Below are positions 7,285-42,407 of a DNA stretch of 42,407 bases, piece by piece; position 1 is the first letter of the stretch, and the number at the start of each line of letters is the position of its first letter. The notes beneath the pieces are model-generated. The model searched no databases, was not told the DNA's origin, and was given only the letters and a program-made list of their open reading frames with translations. A program made the translations under genes and the position numbers. The stretch covers positions 1 through 42,407 of the forward strand of contig CALVOB010000034.1 in the NCBI GenBank assembly GCA_944350095.1, in the 5' to 3' direction. The DNA comes from an uncultured Clostridia bacterium (GTDB lineage: Bacteria > Bacillota > Clostridia > Christensenellales > UBA1242).

Positions 7285-9689
7285 CTTAATTTTGCCCCAA
7301 ATTTAAATTCGCAATCTTTTAAAATTTTATGCATAGAAGAATTTACTTCTTCTTCTGTAAGTGTTTTTTCTTGAGAAGATAGTACTATGCGTAGAGCTAT
7401 ACTTTTTTTGTTTTCTCCTAAATTTTTATTCCTATAAATATCAAATATTTTTGCAGAATAATAAAGATTGCCAGCAGATTTTTTAACAGAAGATAAAAGT
7501 TTTTCTGCAGTAATTTCTTCATCTACAATTAAGGCTAAATCTCTTTCTACATAAGGAAATTTTGATATAGGCTTAACTGAAACTTTTTTCTCGTTAAATT
7601 TTATAAGCTTATCTATATTTATTTCCGCATACAAAGTTTTTTCCGGAAGTTCAAAATTATTGCAAACTTTTGGATGTACTACACCAAACGAGCAAATAAT
7701 TTCTTGAGTTGATTTTTCTATGATATCAGCACTCATTCCTGGGTGCATATATGGAAGAGAAGAATATTTTAAATCATAGTTTAAATCAAAACTAGATAAA
7801 AGCTTTTCTATTGTACCCTTTAATGAGAAAAAGTCTACATTTTCATCAATTGCTCCAATACTCAACATATTTATTTCTGATGGTTGTTCTGTTAATGGTA
7901 ATTCTTTTGGTAAATATATTCTTCCCGCTTCAAAAAATCTTAAATCTTTATTTCCATGCTTTATATTGTAAGATAATGAATTTAACATAGAAAATGCCAT
8001 ATTAGTTCTAACACAAGAAAGTTCATCGCTAATTGGATTTCCTAATTTTATCATATTATAATTTTTATGCTCTGGAGTTAATAGAACTAAATCACATGCA
8101 TTTGGTGGACAAAAAGTATAATTTAAAGTTTCATAGTACCCATCATCACATAAAATATTTTTAAGCTTATTTTCCATATGAATAAGTGGGTTAAACTTTC
8201 CAATTGTATAAGAAGAATTTTTCAACGCTGGAACATCTAGATTGTCGTAAACATCATAGCCATAAAGCCTTATTATTTCTTCGGCAATATCTGCATCATT
8301 TTCAATATCAGTTCTAAAAATTGGAATAATACATTTTAATTTATCACCATTAATTTCTGGCTTTAATCCAAGGCATGTAAGAATATTTAAAACTTCTTTA
8401 TTTTCAACTTCAATTCCTAGAATTTTATAAATTCTTTTTAAAGAAAAGGTCATCTCTTTTTCTTTTGGTTCGCAATTTTTTACATCAATCATGCCACTTA
8501 CAATAGTGCCTGCTTTAAGTTTGTAAACTAAACTTAATGCAGTTTGCATGCCTTGCAAAGGAGAACCTATATCTACACCTTTTTCAAATCTAGCTGTACT
8601 ATCTGTTCTAACACCTATTGCTCTACTTGTTGAACGAATATTTGACCTTTCAAAACAAGCTGCTTCTAAAACACTTATTTTTGTATTATCTGTAACAGAA
8701 GAATTAACTCCACCTATTATTCCAGCTATTACATTTGGCTTATTGGCATCTGCAACAACATTAAAAGATGGTTTTAATTCATAAGTATTTCCATTTAATA
8801 CGCTTATCTTTTCGCCATTTATTGCATTTCTTATAATTATTTTGTTGCCTTCAATGTATTTTTCATCAAAAGCATGCATAGGTTGACCTTGTTCCACTAA
8901 AACATAGTTAGTAATATCCACAATGTTGTTTACACATTTAATTCCTACAGCATTTATACGCTTTTTTATCCACATAGGACTTTCTTTTATTGTTATATCT
9001 TTAACAACTGTTGCTATATAACGAGGGCAAAGCTCATAATTTTTTATTTCAACAGATACATAATTGTTTACATCATCTGTTTTGTCAACTTCATAATATG
9101 GGTCTTGTGCAATTAATGGCGTTTTTAAAATTGCACTAATTTCCCTTGCTATTCCTATTACACTCATGCAATCAGGACGGTTAGGTGTTATATTAATATC
9201 AAAAATAACATCATCTAGCCCAAGTGCAGTTTCTATTTTTTCGCCAAGGTCATGTTTTTCATTAAGAACTAAAATACCATAAATATTTGCACCTTTGTAA
9301 TAATCTTCTGTAATACCTAATTCTTCGCCTGAGCAAAACATACCCTCAGATACTTCTCCGCGAAGGTTAGATTTTTTTATTTTAATTCCATTTACAAGAT
9401 CGGCACCATCAAGAGCTACAGGAACATAGTCTCCTTCTCGAATATTTTTTGCCGCAGTTATTATTTGAAGTTTTCTATCACCTAAATCCACCTGACAAAC
9501 ATCAAGTTTTTCTGCATTAGGATGTTTTTGTATGCTTAAAATTTTACAAACATAAACATCATGTAAGTGTTTATTTTGATATTCTATTTCTTCAACTTCT
9601 AAACCTGCGTTAGTAAGCTTATTAGCCAATTCTTCTGGTGAAATATCTATTTTAACAAATTCTTTTAACCAATTTAATGTAACTTTCAT
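7281..9689 (-). CDS. pheT: Phenylalanine--tRNA ligase beta subunit
   Basis: HPNAEKL, TPNRPDC, DIAEEIIRLYGYD, C-terminal FDX-ACB (RDLALIV...GAKLR). Confidence 0.98.
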   Translation of the reverse strand: MKVTLNWLKEFVKIDISPEELANKLTNAGLEVEEIEYQNKHLHDVYVCKILSIQKHPNAEKLDVCQVDLGDRKLQIITAAKNIREGDYVPVALDGADLVNGIKIKKSNLRGEVSEGMFCSGEELGITEDYYKGANIYGILVLNEKHDLGEKIETALGLDDVIFDINITPNRPDCMSVIGIAREISAILKTPLIAQDPYYEVDKTDDVNNYVSVEIKNYELCPRYIATVVKDITIKESPMWIKKRINAVGIKCVNNIVDITNYVLVEQGQPMHAFDEKYIEGNKIIIRNAINGEKISVLNGNTYELKPSFNVVADANKPNVIAGIIGGVNSSVTDNTKISVLEAACFERSNIRSTSRAIGVRTDSTARFEKGVDIGSPLQGMQTALSLVYKLKAGTIVSGMIDVKNCEPKEKEMTFSLKRIYKILGIEVENKEVLNILTCLGLKPEINGDKLKCIIPIFRTDIENDADIAEEIIRLYGYDVYDNLDVPALKNSSYTIGKFNPLIHMENKLKNILCDDGYYETLNYTFCPPNACDLVLLTPEHKNYNMIKLGNPISDELSCVRTNMAFSMLNSLSYNIKHGNKDLRFFEAGRIYLPKELPLTEQPSEINMLSIGAIDENVDFFSLKGTIEKLLSSFDLNYDLKYSSLPYMHPGMSADIIEKSTQEIICSFGVVHPKVCNNFELPEKTLYAEINIDKLIKFNEKKVSVKPISKFPYVERDLALIVDEEITAEKLLSSVKKSAGNLYYSAKIFDIYRNKNLGENKKSIALRIVLSSQEKTLTEEEVNSSMHKILKDCEFKFGAKLR

Positions 9690-24944: not shown

Positions 24945-26057
<1,113 letters not shown>

Positions 26058-36113: not shown

Positions 36114-36956
36114 ATGAAAAGTATAGTAAAAAAATGTTTAAGTATGGTTTTGGCATTGTTTTGCCTTGCATTTATTTTAACAGGTTGTGAAGAAATAAAA
36201 AATCATAAAATAACGGTAACATCGTGGGATATTACAACAGGTAGCGTTTCTGGTTATGGCACATATAAAACAGGTTATGAAGTTACACTTACAGCCACCC
36301 CAAAATCAGAACAAAACAGGTTTTTAGCTTGGTTAAAAGATGGCTATGTGGTCTCTCAAGAAAATCCATACACTTTTACAGCTAACGATGATACACAAGG
36401 AAAATATATAGCTATATTTAATTCAGAGTATTTAGATTTACTACAATTATCTTCCGCTAGTGTAACACTTCCAGGTCTTCCAATAGAAGATGGCACACAA
36501 GAAACAACAATTACAAGTTTTACTAATATATCTTTTCAAATAGGAACAAGTTCAGATGTTCTATTAAATATAGCAACACAAGAGAATGTAACACCTACAC
36601 CACCATTAGTTTTTACAGATGATTTTACAATACTCCCTTATGTTCTTGATAAAGATTTGGAATATTATATAACTTTTTCAATGACAGTACAATATAAAGA
36701 TAATTTAAGTGGTGAAATAACAACTAAAAAGTATCCAACCCAAATTAAAATTAATTTTTCAAGTCTTGGAACAAGCCAAAATGGAAATCTGATAATTGCA
36801 CAAGATGAAACAACAGGAAATTATACAATAACAAGAAAGAATTTAACAGCTGACTCATCTTGGACTGTAACAGAAGAAGCCAGTCCGACATTTGTACTCA
36901 CCTTTTCAAGTTTAAGTTTTGAACAACCTGAAGAAGACATTGAAGAAAATATTTAA
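36114..36956 (+). CDS. Lipoprotein with an InlB B-repeat/Flg_new-like beta domain
   Basis: Lipobox LTGC; G.VSG.GTY..G.EVTLTATP....F..W......S....Y.F pattern. Confidence 0.75.
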   Translation: MKSIVKKCLSMVLALFCLAFILTGCEEIKNHKITVTSWDITTGSVSGYGTYKTGYEVTLTATPKSEQNRFLAWLKDGYVVSQENPYTFTANDDTQGKYIAIFNSEYLDLLQLSSASVTLPGLPIEDGTQETTITSFTNISFQIGTSSDVLLNIATQENVTPTPPLVFTDDFTILPYVLDKDLEYYITFSMTVQYKDNLSGEITTKKYPTQIKINFSSLGTSQNGNLIIAQDETTGNYTITRKNLTADSSWTVTEEASPTFVLTFSSLSFEQPEEDIEENI

Positions 36957-37130: not shown

Positions 37131-37162
37131 ATATCAAGCTAATATTATAATAAGTTAATTTA

Positions 37163-37208
37163 TGGTGGGAGTTATAGGACTCGAACCTATGACCCTCTGC
37201 TTGTAAGG
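37163..37208 (-). pseudogene. Displaced 3' half of tRNA-Val(TAC), i.e. att site of the integrated element (not a complete tRNA)
   Basis: Minus strand CCTTACAAGCAGAGGGTCATAGGTTCGAGTCCTATAACTCCCACCA: anticodon loop, T arm, acceptor 3' strand and CCA; no D arm or 5' acceptor strand upstream. Confidence 0.92.
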
Positions 37209-37256
37209 AAAACTTAAAACGGCTACAAGCCGCATAAATAAAGGCTTTCATGAAAT

Positions 37257-37278
37257 TTGACCACAATCTTGACCACAA
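37257..37278. repeat. Direct repeat TTGACCACAA x2 (12-bp period); probable tyrosine-integrase arm-type sites
   Basis: Seen directly, about 50 bp inside the element from the att core. Confidence 0.65.
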
Positions 37279-37300
37279 AAATATTACAAAAAATTATTAA

Positions 37301-37328
37301 AAAAGAACTAGCAAACGCTAGTTCTTTT
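37301..37328 (-). terminator. Terminator of the element's leftward operon
   Basis: Perfect 12-bp stem AAAAGAACTAGC-AAAC-GCTAGTTCTTTT. Confidence 0.75.
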
Positions 37329-37369
37329 GTATAGCTTTTTATATTTTTACTTATTGCTATTAATACAAC

Positions 37370-37660
37370 TTAGTTTTCTTTCCATACCTTTATTATTTCT
37401 TCTATCTCTTCTTTTGTTTTGCCTTCCTTTGCTAGCTGTTTTCTTTTATATTCTTCAGCTGCTTTTATAGATTCATAATAAAAGCCTGGATCTACATAAT
37501 TATCTATAGCTTCATAATATTCCTTATGACTTTGTACCACTTCTGGTATTTTCTTTCCTTCTTCTGTTAACTCATATCTTCCTATAAGCTCGTTCCCTTT
37601 TTGTGGTACAAAATAATACCACTCTTTTTTTTCTTTAAAGTATGGTCTACCTAATAACAT
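37370..37660 (-). CDS. Small protein, putative immunity/partner of the upstream metallopeptidase
   Basis: 96 aa; PYF....WYY......Y.LT.....E...S..EYY pattern; AAGGAG RBS; follows HExxH gene. Confidence 0.55.
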   Translation of the reverse strand: MLLGRPYFKEKKEWYYFVPQKGNELIGRYELTEEGKKIPEVVQSHKEYYEAIDNYVDPGFYYESIKAAEEYKRKQLAKEGKTKEEIEEIIKVWKEN

Positions 37661-37687
37661 AAATCTATCTCCTTTTTAAGTTTATTA

Positions 37688-38575
37688 TTATTTTTTGTTT
37701 TTGTCAAATTCTTTTTTTATTCTTGGATTTTTAACCGACATCTTTTTAGCTAAAAATATTTCTGTTGCTTTTCCTAATGTGCTTGGTTCTTTTGAACAAT
37801 TTAAGTTAGTAAAAAGTTCTGCAAACGCTTCCCTGTTGTTGGTTTTTCCATATTCACTTAAATTATTAATATTTTCTTTGCCAAAATGTTTTCTATGTAT
37901 CCTTTGAATTGACTTAAAAAATTTTGTAGCATATTCTTCTGAATATTTTTTAACAATTAATTGTCTTTCTTTAATGTTTGTAGCCTTTGATAACTCATCT
38001 ATGTATTTATCATATCTTATTCTGCCCTGTTTTGTATTTAAATCTTTCTGCATAAGTACTTTTTGTACATAGTGTCCAAACTCATGAGTAACTGTTTGAT
38101 TAACATACTCCTCCTTATCGCATTTTATCCACTCGCCTTTATTTATTAAAATCTCACTTCTCTTCTCGATAATATCTTTATTCGAAAATGTCAAATCTTT
38201 GTTAAATACAATTTGAAGATTATCAAATTTAGTTCCATCATGGAAAAAAGCAGCTGCATAATTTGAAGGCATTTTCCCTGACCGTATAGCAAGTTCTTTT
38301 TCATTTTTTCCTAAAATTTTTGTTGTATCTGTATACTTTCTTGTAAGTGAATCTATTTTATATACATTTGGCAGAAAAATTTCTTCTGGAATTTTGTCTG
38401 TAGATTCCTTTATATGTATATTTTTTTGCTTTAGCTTTTCAGTTTTGCCGTTATATTCTTTCTCTGTGTCTTTATCCTCTTCTGCACTTTCTAAAATATC
38501 AAATAAATCAATATCTCCAGAAGTAGATTTTGAAATATCATAAAAATTTAAATAACAACTTCCTCTTCCGCCCAT
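37688..38575 (-). CDS. MGGRG-N-terminal protein with zincin-like (gluzincin) metallopeptidase domain
   Basis: Starts MGGRGS; THEFGH (HExxH) plus LSEYGKTNNREAFAELF third-ligand motif. Confidence 0.75.
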   Translation of the reverse strand: MGGRGSCYLNFYDISKSTSGDIDLFDILESAEEDKDTEKEYNGKTEKLKQKNIHIKESTDKIPEEIFLPNVYKIDSLTRKYTDTTKILGKNEKELAIRSGKMPSNYAAAFFHDGTKFDNLQIVFNKDLTFSNKDIIEKRSEILINKGEWIKCDKEEYVNQTVTHEFGHYVQKVLMQKDLNTKQGRIRYDKYIDELSKATNIKERQLIVKKYSEEYATKFFKSIQRIHRKHFGKENINNLSEYGKTNNREAFAELFTNLNCSKEPSTLGKATEIFLAKKMSVKNPRIKKEFDKNKK

Positions 38576-39241
38576 TTATTTTTCTCCTTTTGTGTATTTT
38601 TCTAAACTAATTTGTAAATGTGTAGCTATTTGTTTAATCTTTGAGTTACCTTTTAAACTTTTGGGAACTTCACCATAAAATAGTATTTCTATTGGCTCTA
38701 AGTGTTTAAGCATTTCATTGAAACCCTTACAGAAGCCTAGTGTAGCTCTTGGATTTTTCATACAACCTAGAGAACTTACAGCTATTACAGAATTTTTAGG
38801 CAGTCCATCAAAACACCATTCAAAGCTACTTTCATCTGACCAACTAGCGTTTGGTATTACTTCTATGCCTTGACTTTGAAAATAATAGCCAAGAACTTTG
38901 GAACGGTAACTATTCCAGATTTGTTGAGCTTTTGGCATATCTATATACAAACTAAAATCTGGCATTATTATTCCCTTGAATTCTTTTAATAAATTCAAAT
39001 ACTTTTCTGGAAAGTTCCAAACTCTATCGAACTGATAGTCATCTATGTAAAAATGTACATAATAATTTTTCTTTCGCTCTAATAAACTTACAGCTATATT
39101 AAACGGTACAAGTTCATATTTACTAAAAGTCGTTTGTGTAGCCTTGATTTTAGGAAATTCAAATTCGCCCTCGAGCTCTGCACCTTTAACAAGATTAAGC
39201 CTTAAATTGTTTCTAGTTTTGCTTATGTTGTTTGATTTCAT
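38576..39241 (-). CDS. DUF4417 domain protein
   Basis: HFYIDDYQF.RVW..P, PDFSLY.DMP...QIWN.YRS, GI.VIP...W, CFDGLP, AVSS.G, YG. Confidence 0.88.
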   Translation of the reverse strand: MKSNNISKTRNNLRLNLVKGAELEGEFEFPKIKATQTTFSKYELVPFNIAVSLLERKKNYYVHFYIDDYQFDRVWNFPEKYLNLLKEFKGIIMPDFSLYIDMPKAQQIWNSYRSKVLGYYFQSQGIEVIPNASWSDESSFEWCFDGLPKNSVIAVSSLGCMKNPRATLGFCKGFNEMLKHLEPIEILFYGEVPKSLKGNSKIKQIATHLQISLEKYTKGEK

Positions 39242-39250
39242 TTTACTCCT

Positions 39251-40150
39251 TTATAATTCTATATCTTCCAAACTATCAACTAAGCCGTCCAATTCTTCTT
39301 TTGTGTAGTTTCTGCCTTTATTTTCAGAAACATGCTCAGCTGATTTTGCTTTTGTGCTGGAGTGGTCGATTTTATCATAATAGCCAGCTATTATCTTTTC
39401 GTAAATATCTTTTCTACAGCAAAGCTTTAACCCAAAGTTTTTTGCACCTAGTAGGAATTCTGGACTGTTGTTTATTCCTTGAATAAGCTTCTCCATATCT
39501 ACATAGTCTGGTATTACAAAATCTTCTTCAACTATCTTGTTTGGAAAAGCTTGTTTAAACTTAGCTTTAAGTTGGTCATTGTCTTCTCTCTTTTTAACAA
39601 TAGTTTGTTGTTTTTGAAGAAGAGAGCGAACTTCCTTAACGAATAGTATATATTCTCTCTCTAAGTCTTTATTTTGAACTTTTAACTCTCGCTTTTCTTG
39701 TTCAAAATTTGCCTTAATATTTTTTAAAATCTCCGTAAAAATAGACTGATATTTAGTAAATTTCATAATTTTAGGTATGATAGAGGATATTAGAAAGGGA
39801 ATTCTAACATCTATATTTTCAGACTTTCTTCCAACTACTGTTTTAAAATGGTTTAGTTGAATTTCTTCATTGGTCAATATTGAAAACTTTTCATATTTAG
39901 TTTTATCAAATATTCCAAGATATACAGTCTGATTAATAATTTCAGAAAGTTTTGAAGCACTAGTATGGCACATAAATGCTAACCCCTCAAAACCCTCTTT
40001 CTTTATTTCGAGATAGTACCCCTCATTTACAAGCCCTAGCAAAAGAAAGTATGAAAACATTCCTTTTGCTCCCACTCTACCATACAGAGTACCCTCGATT
40101 TCTGAAAGTCTATTTCTACGAAGATACAACGGCTTTGAATATGAAGCCAT
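39251..40150 (-). CDS. Phage-type replication initiator / replisome organiser (DUF4373, Lin1244/Lin1753-like N-terminus)
   Basis: G.KG...Y..LL....EGYY, GIFDK.KYEKFSILT...IQ pattern; acidic C-terminal RNYTKEELDGL tail; start moved to ATG 40150 (GGAGGT RBS). Confidence 0.7.
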   Translation of the reverse strand: MASYSKPLYLRRNRLSEIEGTLYGRVGAKGMFSYFLLLGLVNEGYYLEIKKEGFEGLAFMCHTSASKLSEIINQTVYLGIFDKTKYEKFSILTNEEIQLNHFKTVVGRKSENIDVRIPFLISSIIPKIMKFTKYQSIFTEILKNIKANFEQEKRELKVQNKDLEREYILFVKEVRSLLQKQQTIVKKREDNDQLKAKFKQAFPNKIVEEDFVIPDYVDMEKLIQGINNSPEFLLGAKNFGLKLCCRKDIYEKIIAGYYDKIDHSSTKAKSAEHVSENKGRNYTKEELDGLVDSLEDIEL

Positions 40151-40192
40151 TTTAGCACCTCCGCACACCGCTTATTGCGATGAGATTTATTT

Positions 40193-40495
40193 TTAAGAAA
40201 AATTTGGTAAATCTATATATCTTATATCTTTTCGTAAATTCATACATTCTTTTATCATTAATTCATCTAAATTAATAAATTTTAAATTATTGAATTTAGC
40301 ATAATTATATAGATTATCGCAAAGCGGGTGACGCTCGCCGTAAACCCAAATAAATTTATCACCCTTTTTAAACTCATTTTTATCTTTTATTACTTCAATA
40401 ATTGAAGCATTATCTTGACTTTGCTCTACAATATTAACAACTTCTGATACCTGACTTAAATTTTTTACTTCAATAAAAATTTCTTGATATCCCAT
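40193..40495 (-). CDS. Hypothetical phage protein (100 aa)
   Basis: ORF in operon with AAGGGTG RBS. Confidence 0.65.
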   Translation of the reverse strand: MGYQEIFIEVKNLSQVSEVVNIVEQSQDNASIIEVIKDKNEFKKGDKFIWVYGERHPLCDNLYNYAKFNNLKFINLDELMIKECMNLRKDIRYIDLPNFS

Positions 40496-40519
40496 ATTTC
40501 CACCTTATTTTGTGTAGCT

Positions 40520-40723
40520 TTATACTGCTGGTATTACATTTGAAGCAAAAGCTGAAAGAGCACCCATTACGAAACCTAAAATGAATCCACTTAACCCTAT
40601 TAAAACATATTTAATTATATTATTAAATTTTTTTATTTCTTCTTCTCTTTTGGCTTTTTCTTCTCTATATTCTTGAACTTCTTCTCTAAGTTCTTCTACT
40701 TCCATTTGATTAATATCTTTCAT
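40520..40723 (-). CDS. Small protein, charged coiled coil plus C-terminal TM helix
   Basis: 67 aa; ATGA-coupled to upstream ORF. Confidence 0.65.
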   Translation of the reverse strand: MKDINQMEVEELREEVQEYREEKAKREEEIKKFNNIIKYVLIGLSGFILGFVMGALSAFASNVIPAV

Positions 40724-40869
40724 CTTACACCTTCTTTTAATTGAATAAATTTTACAGGGCAGTTTTCATCTCCTGTTGTTTCATCTTTAAAATATTCCTC
40801 GCCAAAATTACATTCCATTTGACAATTAAAGCAAGGACAATTAAAGCAATCTTTTGGATATATGTTCAT
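40720..40869 (-). CDS. 49-aa Cys-rich peptide; not in ORF track
   Basis: MNIYPKDCFNCPCFNCQMECNFGEEYFKDETTGDENCPVKFIQLKEGVR; ATGA overlaps at both ends; AAGGAG RBS. Confidence 0.7.
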   Translation of the reverse strand: MNIYPKDCFNCPCFNCQMECNFGEEYFKDETTGDENCPVKFIQLKEGVR

Positions 40870-41123
40870 TTTTTCTCCTTTTGCTTTTTATAGCTTATCA
40901 ACTCTTCACGAAGCTTGTCTGGTTTAACTTGCATTACTTCCGCCAGTGCTTCTAATATATCATCTGTAGGTATATGTATACCCTTTTCCCATGTCCTAAT
41001 TTGTTGCCTTGAGATTTTTCCTCTGCTAGCACCAAGTTCGTTTAAGTCTTCTGCCAGCATGGGCTGAGTCCAGTAATTACGCTTACGCCATTCTTTTATT
41101 GGGTTTTTCAATGTTTTTTTCAC
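40866..41123 (-). CDS. XRE/Cro-like helix-turn-helix regulator
   Basis: IKEWRKR..WTQ..LA......SRQQIRTWEKG...P....L..LA. Confidence 0.85.
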   Translation of the reverse strand: MKKTLKNPIKEWRKRNYWTQPMLAEDLNELGASRGKISRQQIRTWEKGIHIPTDDILEALAEVMQVKPDKLREELISYKKQKEKK

Positions 41124-41356
41124 CCCCTTTTATTTCTTTTTATTCCTTTTATTCTTTTTTAACCCGCTACGCGGGTTTTAATAAGATTCATATATTTATT
41201 TGAATACTTTATCGACCAAATATTAATTTTGCCTTTCTACATAAGTTTCTTAATGCCATTTTTTCAATATGCTGTTTTTTGAATAGGCTTACGCCTTTGC
41301 CTGCTTACTGTTTTGTTTGGTTTTTCTGTTTTGAAGATTTTTTATAAATCAAGCTA

Positions 41357-41430
41357 AAATTTTTTTAGAAATTTTGCTGGGCATTTGCAATTTGCAAATG
41401 CACACAGTCAAAATTTTACTAAAAAAATTT
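41357..41430. repeat. Long imperfect hairpin (74 nt) downstream of the Zot-like gene
   Basis: Arms AAATTTTTTTAG/CTAAAAAAATTT, AAATTTTG/CAAAATTT, CTG/CAG; core GCATTTGCAA-T-TTGCAAATGC. Confidence 0.75.
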
Positions 41431-41432
41431 CT

Positions 41433-42407
41433 TTACGCTTGCTTTCTAAAAAATTCTTCTTGATTACTAGAAATAACTAAACTTTTCCATACATTCTTTT
41501 GCAAAGGCTTATCTTTTGCCTTATAAAAATTCCTATAACATCTATCGTCATAAACGGCATTTAATATAGCTGGTAAAATAAAGGTACTTACGCCACGCTT
41601 TAACTGTTTCAAATCTGGAACTTTGTCTTCACCGTAGGCCACCATAGAACTAAAGCCAGACTCCGTTCCTGCAAAGTCTTTGTAATAATACTTTCGATAT
41701 CCAGAAAATTTTATAAACTTCTCAAAGTTCTCCATAAAACCTGAAAAAAGTTGAGATTTTCTTTTTGTGGGCTTTTTAGAAAACTTATCTTTAAAAAAGT
41801 TAAAGAGCCAAGAAAGTATTAGAGGCTTTAATACTGGTTTTTGCAAAAACATATATTTATTTTCACAGACACAGCGTCGAATGTCTTTATTAACATTATT
41901 CTTATCCTGTTCTGTACAGTAAATGTGGAATTCGCCAAAGTGACGGCACCAACGAGCTAACTCGCCAATCTCTATTGGGCGTTCCTTTCTTCCTGTTTCG
42001 TCTATGGATACCACAGAACCGACTTCGTCTACTATTAAAACTGTATATTCAGCTATACGGTCGACCTGTTCTAAATGTCTGCGAGTACAAATGTTTGTAA
42101 AAAGTTTTCCAACTTTCATAGGAATGTTTGACCAAAGGCAAGGGACACAATCACCAACTGAATAGAATAGGTAAGCTTCTTTTATTCGTTCCCAGCGTTG
42201 TATTTTTTCCTTGTCACCTGAAGCATATAGCTTAGCTTCTTTAGCTAGATCCTTTGCATATTGATATCTAAGTTCTAGCCACATTTTACGAGCTAGAATT
42301 ACGCCGTCATAAACAAGTGAGCTTGTTTTGCCAGCGCCTGGCGTGCCATTGCGAGTTACCATGTATTTTGATATATCTATACTTGCGTTGTGTAGCTTTA
42401 CACGAGA
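41433..42407 (-). CDS. Zot-like / inovirus pI-type morphogenesis ATPase, 5'-truncated by window end
   Basis: Walker A GTPGAGKT, SNIP, Walker B LIVDEVG, RHF...IYCTEQD...DIRR; frame open to 42407. Confidence 0.82.
   Translation of the reverse strand, partial: SRVKLHNASIDISKYMVTRNGTPGAGKTSSLVYDGVILARKMWLELRYQYAKDLAKEAKLYASGDKEKIQRWERIKEAYLFYSVGDCVPCLWSNIPMKVGKLFTNICTRRHLEQVDRIAEYTVLIVDEVGSVVSIDETGRKERPIEIGELARWCRHFGEFHIYCTEQDKNNVNKDIRRCVCENKYMFLQKPVLKPLILSWLFNFFKDKFSKKPTKRKSQLFSGFMENFEKFIKFSGYRKYYYKDFAGTESGFSSMVAYGEDKVPDLKQLKRGVSTFILPAILNAVYDDRCYRNFYKAKDKPLQKNVWKSLVISSNQEEFFRKQA

Follow-up and report, generated by a model that had tools for sequence, protein, structure and literature searches.

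The 42,407-nt stretch of DNA analysed here (contig CALVOB010000034.1 of an uncultured Clostridia bacterium; 'the window' below means this whole stretch, to which coordinates refer unless another record is named) carries on its minus strand three adjacent genes, encoding a DUF4417 protein, a 295-aa putative zincin metallopeptidase that begins with the residues MGGRG, and a 96-aa protein that we call the partner. With a Lin1244_N-like gene ending 9 nt upstream of DUF4417, they make up a run of four co-directional genes without large gaps (Table 1). The TAA stop codon of the DUF4417 gene directly abuts the ATG of the peptidase open reading frame (ORF), giving TAAATG; this ORF opens with MGGRGSCYLN and that of the partner with MLLGRPYFKEKKEWYY, and a ribosome-binding site of the GGAG type can be read upstream of each gene of the trio. 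A scan for consensus terminators listed no hairpin after the 96-aa gene; separate folding of the minus strand from 37285 to 37372 revealed a stem of 12 bp with a U run behind it (-21.2 kcal/mol, z -4.36), and none of 200 shuffled sequences was as stable. An initial annotation of this DNA had described the same succession of DUF4417, TAAATG junction, MGGRGS/HEFGH protein, 96-aa gene and terminator, and every part of it was found in place. Here we report that diverse proteins carrying this N-terminal tag are encoded next to DUF4417, a linkage suggesting that phage effectors may be handled or delivered by a route not yet described.

Table 1. Features of the locus and its surroundings, in window coordinates.
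Feature	Position	Strand	Basis
Membrane-anchored P-loop NTPase, weakly Zot-like, continuing onto contig C55	41433..42407	-	Zot 19.6 bits against a cut-off of 20.3; phrog_197, E 0.0043
Replication-initiator-like (Lin1244_N) protein	39251..40168	-	PF14297, E 2.6e-10; phrog_2562 (replication initiation protein), E 1.2e-10
DUF4417 protein, 221 aa, predicted TGT-like TIM barrel	38576..39241	-	PF14386, E 1e-59; phrog_8680 and phrog_940
Putative zincin metallopeptidase, 295 aa (anthrax-LF/PPEP-like, MuF-toxin-type domain), with the MGGRG tag on a flexible leader of ~35 residues	37688..38575	-	ORF; AF2 model; structural matches to LF and PPEP; invariant columns
Codons of the tag M1-G2-G3-R4-G5	38561..38575	-	Sequence; invariant in 30 of 30 aligned homologues; codon diversity
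HEFGH zinc-binding/catalytic motif, residues 164-168	38072..38086	-	Sequence; H164, E165, G167 and H168 invariant
SEYGKTNNREAFAELF, residues 240-255, aligned to the anthrax LF segment that holds the Tyr and the third-ligand Glu	37811..37858	-	phmmer alignment to 2l0r; invariant columns
Partner, 96 aa: N-terminal mini-domain of ~45 residues (PYF..KEWYY..LT...S..E) and Lys/Glu-rich helical C-terminal half	37370..37660	-	ORF; co-conserved in 5 of 5 loci
Hairpin and U run, probable intrinsic terminator of the operon	37290..37330	-	RNA fold
51-bp copy of the tRNA-Val(tac) 3' end, att repeat bounding the element	37158..37208	-	100% match to C55:9015-9065
Abbreviations: AF2, AlphaFold2; att, attachment site; LF, lethal factor; NTPase, nucleoside triphosphatase; PPEP, Pro-Pro endopeptidase; TGT, tRNA-guanine transglycosylase.

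The initial annotation had stated that DUF4417 genes are often followed by MGGRG proteins with variable C-termini. We examined this in the best 80 of 222 IMG/VR relatives of the window's DUF4417, the set to which the neighbourhood counts below apply. Against a background of 2844 ORFs, 66 ORFs of at least 60 aa either start with (M/V/L)GGRG or have GGRG directly after a leader ending in LxxF. All 66 lie on the DUF4417 strand, and 62 fall within the stretch from -112 to +1754 nt relative to the DUF4417 stop codon, often at +0, +1, +4, -10 or -22. The density of GGRG[ASGV] strings was 0.73 per kb downstream of DUF4417, compared with 0.015 per kb upstream on the same strand (just four strings in 273 kb) and 0.005 per kb on the opposite strand. 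The rule is therefore well founded, with tagged proteins strongly enriched downstream, spread over 48 of the 80 loci and falling into 17 unrelated BLAST clusters, to which the window peptidase adds an eighteenth. When the DUF4417 proteins were grouped at 85% identity, 14 of 25 clusters had a tagged start, six had the string without a clean start and five had neither. Up to four tagged ORFs stand in tandem at one locus (L061), and positions 6-9, after the GGRG used for selection, favour [AS][SA]SG. Of the 2684 frames with 60 codons or more in the window's own genome, a single one has GGRG directly after its start codon, and this is the peptidase gene; the MGGRG start is therefore not a chance feature.

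Variants of the tag also occur. MGSRGAASG is found on small cargoes that follow a tagged cargo at four loci (L030, L061, L068 and L079), and MGGRS, MGGRC or MGGNG on five relatives of the peptidase (P0191, P0193, P0195, P0204 and P0326). Reading by eye, we observed 14 loci in which the cargo body is present together with a tag stretch that has no start codon or is not in frame with an ATG, in many cases at a run of G (L017, L023, L024, L027, L029, L031, L032, L038, L045, L047, L051, L055, L067 and L080); sequencing error, decay or slipped-strand switching may account for this. In the literature covered by our search, no paper describes the pairing of DUF4417 with a Gly-rich tag, and the papers that contain 'MGGRG' are, judged by title and abstract, on other subjects.

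The synonymous codon diversity of the tag indicates that selection acts on it at the protein level. Among 45 distinct tags, each Gly position shows the full set of four Gly codons, and the Arg codons include AGA and AGG as well as CGN. Three cargoes carry a leader directly before GGRG (MIKLDLQFF-, MVEYNLQFF- and MNKMKLNLQLF-). The host protease Prp trims a leader, between F and A, from ribosomal protein L27 and from the capsid proteins of phage 80alpha, as described in PMC5744158. A Prp gene is present in the genome of the window, and the ...LQ(F/L)F ends of the cargo leaders resemble, in sequence, this type of cleavage site. For the comparison, the exact L27 cleavage motif was taken from general background.

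A second architecture places GGRG inside the protein. Here a ~70-aa N-terminal domain is followed by GGRG[AS]S, a Gly-rich linker and a HNHPSG..FS..D motif, which we take to be JAB-like, in proteins of 250-270 aa. Such proteins are encoded directly after a ParB-DUF4417 fusion at six loci (L013, L016, L019, L026, L036 and L044), at relatives of these loci and in Streptococcus phage SpGS-1, as gp30 (L082 4611-5357); the two that were scanned had no Pfam match. The internal GGRG suggests a cleavable version of the tag, and a free Gly-Gly-Arg-Gly end, generated by Met removal or by cleavage, would be the simplest common denominator of all these proteins. The premise of the initial annotation, that Gly-Gly becomes free after removal of Met, is plausible because three cargoes have the ...LQ(F/L)F leader directly before GGRG. 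Proteins that undergo N-myristoylation typically conform to the consensus M-G-x-x-x-S, and a eukaryote-type reading of the tag along these lines was considered; we set it aside because these are phage proteins of bacteria and because Arg4 and Gly5 are invariant.

What follows the tag is varied. We scanned 20 proteins against Pfam, namely representatives of the 17 tagged clusters, the two internal-GGRG proteins mentioned above and one unrelated neighbour. Three cargoes matched ADPrib_exo_Tox (E 1e-27, 8.5e-20 and 2e-5) and one matched Gln_amidase, a papain-fold glutamine deamidase toxin (E 2.5e-15). A further cluster of 12 members consists of zincins with HEIGH and ...SRYATKNRSEAMAEAV, like the window peptidase, and the small cargoes of 103-169 aa had no Pfam match. 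Each of the enzymatic cargoes, of at least 199 aa, has behind it a small ORF (46-102 aa) without the tag; the small cargoes are arranged in tandem instead. In tailed phages, the seven long ORFs scanned just downstream encode the terminase large subunit in four cases and an SPP1-type portal in three.

The tag can also be read in well-known phages. In Streptococcus phage A25 (KT388093, L098 2133-2543), the ORF after DUF4417 opens with MGGRGASSGMSDKG at an ATG that lies 27 nt before the annotated start; this upstream ATG gives MGGRGASSG and a 31-nt overlap with the DUF4417 gene, and the small terminase subunit comes next. In Mycobacterium phage L5 (Z18946, L081 1081-1419), an unannotated 112-aa frame starting MGGRGSKGGPGPG (MGGRGSKGG) overlaps the end of gene 1, which encodes DUF4417, and differs from the annotated frame of gene 2. 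The discrepancy may reflect a frameshift or an old sequencing error in a GC-rich stretch. Gene 2 of the L5 relative Mabel is annotated as a 'VIP2-like toxin' and has a Gly-rich N-terminus in which we saw no clean MGGRG. The gene starts of A25 and L5 thus appear to be mis-set, so that annotation has hidden the tag.

We then considered the peptidase itself. The HExxH motif is present in all 63 homologues and the MGGRG start in 62; P0022, which lacks this start, appears to be a gene call that was truncated. In an alignment of 30 sequences extending to 24% identity, the invariant columns include M1, G2, G3, R4 and G5 together with H164, E165, G167 and H168, and further S240, Y242, E249, F251, A252, E253 and F255. 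The first five residues are therefore as invariant as the zinc ligands. The AF2 model has a mean predicted local distance difference test score (pLDDT) of 91.0, with residues 1-4 below 50 and the blocks covering residues 1-30 at 58-75. Its best matches in the VIA structural comparison were the catalytic domain of anthrax LF (1yqy; Z 9.0, root-mean-square deviation 4.1 over 177 residues) and Pro-Pro endopeptidases (Z 8.0 for PPEP-3, 9g0j, and 6.8); the best Foldseek match, also to LF, was weak (E 0.047). With phmmer the motif segment aligned to LF chain 2l0r at a whole-sequence E of 0.22. We presume for Y242 and E249 the roles of the aligned LF residues, a catalytic Tyr and a Glu that binds zinc. 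No Pfam (E up to 0.1), PHROG, NCBIfam or PADLOC family was matched. We interpret the 295-aa protein as a putative zinc endopeptidase of the effector or toxin type, a view that the comparison with MuF proteins below supports.

An exhaustive profile search yielded 1141 relatives of the peptidase. The best 150 comprise 87 proteins of at most 300 aa, of which 58 start with MGGRG, five with the near variants MGGRS, MGGRC or MGGNG, and 24, many of them fragments, otherwise. The other 63 are longer and carry the peptidase domain at the C-terminus, and none of them contains a GG.?RG string. When 10 of these longer proteins were scanned, Phage_Mu_F was found above cut-off in five and below it in one, Phage_min_cap2 in two, and neither in two; one also carries an ADP-ribosyltransferase domain. 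The resemblance of the peptidase to MuF toxins, to which the initial annotation had pointed, is thus substantiated, with the domain at the C-terminus of Phage_Mu_F or Phage_min_cap2 proteins in most of those scanned (7/10 by the more exclusive count) and a small partner co-conserved. One toxin domain thus occurs both as an untagged C-terminal part of minor capsid proteins and as a free, short MGGRG protein, and tag and MuF fusion appear to be alternatives to one another. A word-based search had detected none of the longer proteins with the fused domain, which we attribute to limited sensitivity, since the exhaustive profile search then found many. Searches with the single peptidase protein gave no loci in viral contigs, one weak partial match in the phage collection and at least three loci in genome contigs. 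A second, weak match in the window's own genome, on contig C61 (E 9e-4), was dropped, as it lies in what looks like a replication gene of a microvirus.

All five peptidase-holding loci examined preserve the order DUF4417, peptidase, partner; besides the window, they comprise a genome of the same family (31% peptidase identity), two metagenome-assembled genomes (MAGs) of uncultured Clostridia (54-55%) and a Christensenella MAG (27%). Among all collected loci, the profile of the partner matches just these five. In a large database the same profile gave 473 matches, many of them stand-alone proteins of ~50 aa consisting of the PYF..NKEWYY..LTDKAP..ESY module alone. The partner thus combines a generic module with a specific tail. 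The partner has no Pfam, PHROG or NCBIfam family, its PADLOC row of 15 bits is at chance level, and the ESM Atlas gave no usable match. We infer that it may be an immunity protein, an inhibitor or a chaperone of the peptidase. As a separate observation, the stand-alone mini-protein (PYFM.NKEWYY.D..E.RYKLTDKAP..AIESY.EFY, in proteins P0066-P0185) is very common in metagenomes and bears no family name.

DUF4417 is present in a single copy in the window's genome, and its match to PF14386 (201.6 bits against a cut-off of 28.9) covers profile positions 2-173 of 183. Invariant in an alignment of 26 sequences are H63, D67, D68, R73, S97, N110, R113 and S156, and D95 is present in at least 90% of the rows. 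The conserved residues lie mostly just after predicted strands, with D67, D68 and D95 following strands 60-63 and 90-92. The AF2 model has a pLDDT of 88.4. When residues 35-221 were compared with 48,161 representative structures, the best matches were to archaeosine TGT (ArcTGT, 1iq8, Z 10.4), DpdA (7ui4, 9.5), QTRT2 (9.4) and TGT (3unt, 8.4), and TGT accounts for each of the 14 highest-ranking chains in pdb_via; Foldseek gave weak TIM-barrel rows only. DUF4417 thus models as a TGT-like TIM barrel, in line with the transglycosylase-like barrel about which the initial annotation had asked. Predictions of a complex between DUF4417 and peptidase residues 2-45 scored 0.56, 0.03 and 0.44 in separate runs, compared with 0.36 for one control, and are not used as evidence either way. 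Fusions of ParB and DUF4417 are common, with ORF maxima of 344-433 aa in the neighbourhood set. A preprint on ParB-CTPase folds describes DUF4417, in the parts of it considered here, as a phage-enriched partner of these folds with no assigned function. In the passages covered by our search, the literature on DUF4417 assigns it no function and makes no mention of a tag.

The trio forms the terminal operon of an integrated element. Positions 37158-37208 repeat, without mismatch, 51 bp from the tRNA-Val(tac) 3' end of contig C55 (C55:9015-9065, overlapping the tRNA-Val at c[9020-9095]), and ARAGORN detected no complete tRNA in the window. The right end of the window contig overlaps the left end of C55 inside one P-loop ORF (C55:2-415). 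From the att repeats and the contig overlap we conclude that an element of ~14 kb is integrated at tRNA-Val, consisting of window 37158-42407 and C55:1-9095 (L091). It encodes a tyrosine integrase (phrog_1, E 5.9e-53), a CI/Cro-type helix-turn-helix (HTH) pair, a further HTH protein, small transmembrane ORFs and three surface-repeat proteins with InlB B-repeats or BspA leucine-rich repeats. No terminase, portal, capsid or MuF family was matched among the scanned ORFs of the element as assembled, so that the remark of the initial annotation that no MuF or head gene was in view holds for these parts, and PF04233 (Phage_Mu_F) has no match anywhere in the genome (94.5% complete). Inovirus-like (filamentous) prophages carry a Zot/pI-type morphogenesis ATPase and small coat proteins and have no capsid or terminase; the element has the sub-threshold Zot match (Table 1), the small transmembrane ORFs and the surface-repeat proteins, and no coat-protein family was matched by the ORFs scanned. 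A reasonable reading is that the element may be an inovirus-like prophage of a 1-Mb Clostridia genome of 29% GC.

Some neighbouring features deserve mention. A lipoprotein-like ORF just outside the element (36114-36956, plus strand) has the same divergent InlB B-repeat (Flg_new_2) as the surface proteins of the element. Elsewhere in the genome, a weak Terminase_3-like match (C18:52401-52697, L095; 21.5 bits, below cut-off) within a 480-aa ORF may mark a tailed prophage capable of acting as helper. The block C61:3370-7427, with a 588-aa capsid-like ORF, a 338-aa replication-like ORF and small ORFs, may, judged by the sequences alone, represent a Microviridae prophage of the gokushovirus type; it adjoins tRNA-Thr and a tRNA-synthetase-like gene.

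We propose that DUF4417 handles Gly-tagged, interchangeable effectors that travel with the element, and that the partner neutralises or chaperones the peptidase, a reading to which we give an even chance of being correct. Met aminopeptidase, or a Prp-type protease where a leader of the LQFF type exists, would expose the alpha-amine of Gly. The DUF4417 barrel would then bind the tagged N-terminus, much as Cap10 binds Gly2 of CdnD in the type IV cyclic-oligonucleotide-based antiphage signalling systems (CBASS) discussed below, and would modify it or couple it to a nucleobase, a nucleic acid or a particle component. Interchangeable effectors could thereby be carried with the DNA of the element into the next cell, tag and enzyme standing in for the covalent MuF fusion. 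In the producing cell, the 96-aa protein would act as the cognate neutraliser (immunity protein or inhibitor) or as a chaperone of the peptidase. This largely follows the interpretation offered at the outset, of which the enrichment of the tag and the MuF-type toxin domain held up and a free Gly-Gly is plausible; that DUF4417 would recognise, modify or couple the tag is the explanation we prefer on the basis of the gene linkage, the TGT-like fold and the Cap10/CdnD precedent. The analyses establish the linkage, the protein-level invariance of the tag, the variety of cargo, the alternative form fused to MuF, the TGT-like fold and the synteny of the trio, whereas each biochemical step is inferred. 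In a more far-reaching version, which we regard as speculative and on balance unlikely, a transglycosylase-derived DUF4417 would covalently join GGRG effectors to a nucleobase or to element nucleic acid without a QueC-type ligase, giving DNA-borne delivery of toxins, anti-defence enzymes and small basic proteins in tailed phages of Firmicutes and Actinobacteria and in small elements without detected capsid genes.

A number of observations count against the proposal that DUF4417 acts on the tag and that the partner neutralises the peptidase. Six of the 80 loci have no GGRG[ASGV] downstream, and in 26 more the string lies only inside an ORF or has no in-frame start; furthermore, the 80 loci are not independent, many coming from one metagenome. 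The structural margin of the TGT family over generic TIM barrels is modest (Z 10.4 compared with at most 7.9), hhalign gave a probability of 0.2% and no detectable similarity between DUF4417 and the genome's own canonical TGT (window 24954-26012), and the DUF4417 profile had no matches among PDB sequences. The known chemistry requires a Cap9-type ligase, and for such a QueC-like protein (PF06508) the best scores in the 94.5% complete genome were 27.2 and 22.1 bits, within ORFs of 394 and 316 aa, and none was found in any of five phage records (two of them at least 90% complete) or among the scanned ORFs of the element. The mini-domain of the partner is far more widespread than the peptidase family, which would be unusual for a dedicated immunity protein. 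Finally, a version of the model in which effectors are loaded into capsids does not fit the window, because the element, as assembled and scanned, yielded no packaging or MuF gene; the presence of the module on such a small element argues against purely capsid-based loading.

The most serious alternative, although we consider it rather unlikely, is that tag and DUF4417 are independent neighbours. DUF4417, often fused to ParB, would act on DNA in the manner of DpdA, the MGGRG start would be read by the portal, a scaffold or a host factor, and both would simply share a slot before the packaging genes. The DpdA and TGT enzymes that head the fold matches do act on nucleic acids, ParB-DUF4417 fusions are common, the seven long downstream ORFs scanned encode a terminase large subunit or a portal, and some DUF4417 loci have no tag. 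Nevertheless, the pair persists in the window element and at L094, where no packaging genes are in view, and the trio is conserved down to 27% peptidase identity. Stop and start codons abut or overlap at the distances given above, which suggests coupled expression, and tagged ORFs cluster at DUF4417 rather than at portal and terminase genes in general, given the scarcity of the string upstream. The operon might alternatively be a prophage-borne module for toxin-antitoxin function, abortive infection or superinfection exclusion, in which the peptidase is the toxin, the 96-aa protein its antitoxin and DUF4417 a regulator or sensor, and nothing is delivered. The terminal, att-proximal position of the operon with its own terminator, typical of morons, would suit such a module, as would the co-conserved small partner and the small ORF that generally follows enzymatic cargoes. 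We think it distinctly unlikely, however: none of the three proteins has a meaningful PADLOC match, the same tag is found on small non-enzymatic proteins that form tandem arrays of up to four (L061) without partners, and the fusion of the peptidase domain to virion proteins (MuF and minor capsid 2) speaks for delivery.

Zincins and JAB-like proteins are found repeatedly next to DUF4417, as the 12-member HEIGH cluster and the HNHPSG..FS..D proteins illustrate, and the peptidase could accordingly be imagined as the processing protease of the system, trimming leaders or releasing tagged proteins, as the JAB-like proteins of other loci might do, instead of being a cargo. This seems to us improbable, because the peptidase is itself tagged in 62 of 63 homologues, and the same domain is found at the C-terminus of MuF proteins, once alongside an ADP-ribosyltransferase domain; as the peptidase is the sole tagged protein of the element, it would have nothing else there to process. 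That the conserved start is a nucleic-acid signal, for instance one that enhances translation or a site at which cassettes are exchanged by recombination, might be suggested by its purine- and G-rich character, its location at cassette junctions and the 14 loci in which the tag stretch is out of frame or startless. Such a signal is most improbable in view of the free choice among Gly codons and between the two types of Arg codon, and of the occurrence of the motif after Prp-type leaders and inside proteins, behind an N-terminal domain.

If DUF4417 reads the tag, a five-residue N-terminus would flag phage-delivered effectors from sequence in gut, streptococcal and mycobacterial phages, among them ADP-ribosyltransferases, deamidases, peptidases and many small uncharacterised proteins. 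A testable role would then be available for DUF4417, a widespread phage domain, and the action of a TGT-like protein on a protein N-terminus would be extended from defence to the phage side. Covalent joining, should it prove true, would amount to a general route of protein-nucleic-acid conjugation for effector delivery. What the window adds is that the module of DUF4417 and tag is also carried by a small element in which no packaging genes were detected.

Several known systems share parts of this arrangement. Like the M34-type zincins of MEROPS (LF and the Pro-Pro endopeptidases), the peptidase has HExxH and, downstream, a Tyr and a Glu within S.Y......E.FAE; it differs from them in its low identity (14-16%), in having no Pfam match and in being a single domain of 295 aa without the other domains of LF. 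Residues 35-221 of DUF4417 share the barrel fold of DpdA and TGT, but DUF4417, at ~190 residues compared with 370-580, is much shorter, shows no Zn-binding subdomain in the element list of its model and has no sequence similarity to them. The internal proteins of phage T4 share a short N-terminal capsid-targeting sequence on unrelated bodies and are injected with the DNA; this sequence is removed by the prohead protease, and no dedicated enzyme gene is needed. In contrast, the tag described here is linked to a TGT-like enzyme and is also found in an element without detected head genes.

MuF toxins of temperate phages have been reported to comprise 20% metallopeptidases and 14% ADP-ribosyltransferases and were proposed to enter the cell with the injected DNA (Jamet et al., 2017; PMC5576092). 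They have the same zincin domain as a C-terminal module, an overlapping toxin repertoire and a small gene after the toxin. Unlike them, the window peptidase has no MuF domain and is a separate small protein with a five-residue tag, linked to DUF4417. In type IV CBASS, as described in 10.1101/2025.04.06.647259, CdnD starts with M(G/S)G(G/S)GG, the QueC-like Cap9 joins the amine of Gly2 to 7-amido-7-deazaguanine, and Gly2 occupies the pocket of the TGT-like Cap10, seemingly ready to be transferred. There, as here, a TGT-fold protein is encoded beside a client with a conserved Gly-rich N-terminus. The locus has no CD-NTase (its client is a zincin peptidase starting MGGRGS), its tag is GGRG instead of (G/S)G(G/S)GG, and its setting is that of phages and mobile elements with many interchangeable cargoes instead of a defence operon with one client. 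The relation to type IV CBASS is one of resemblance, not membership.

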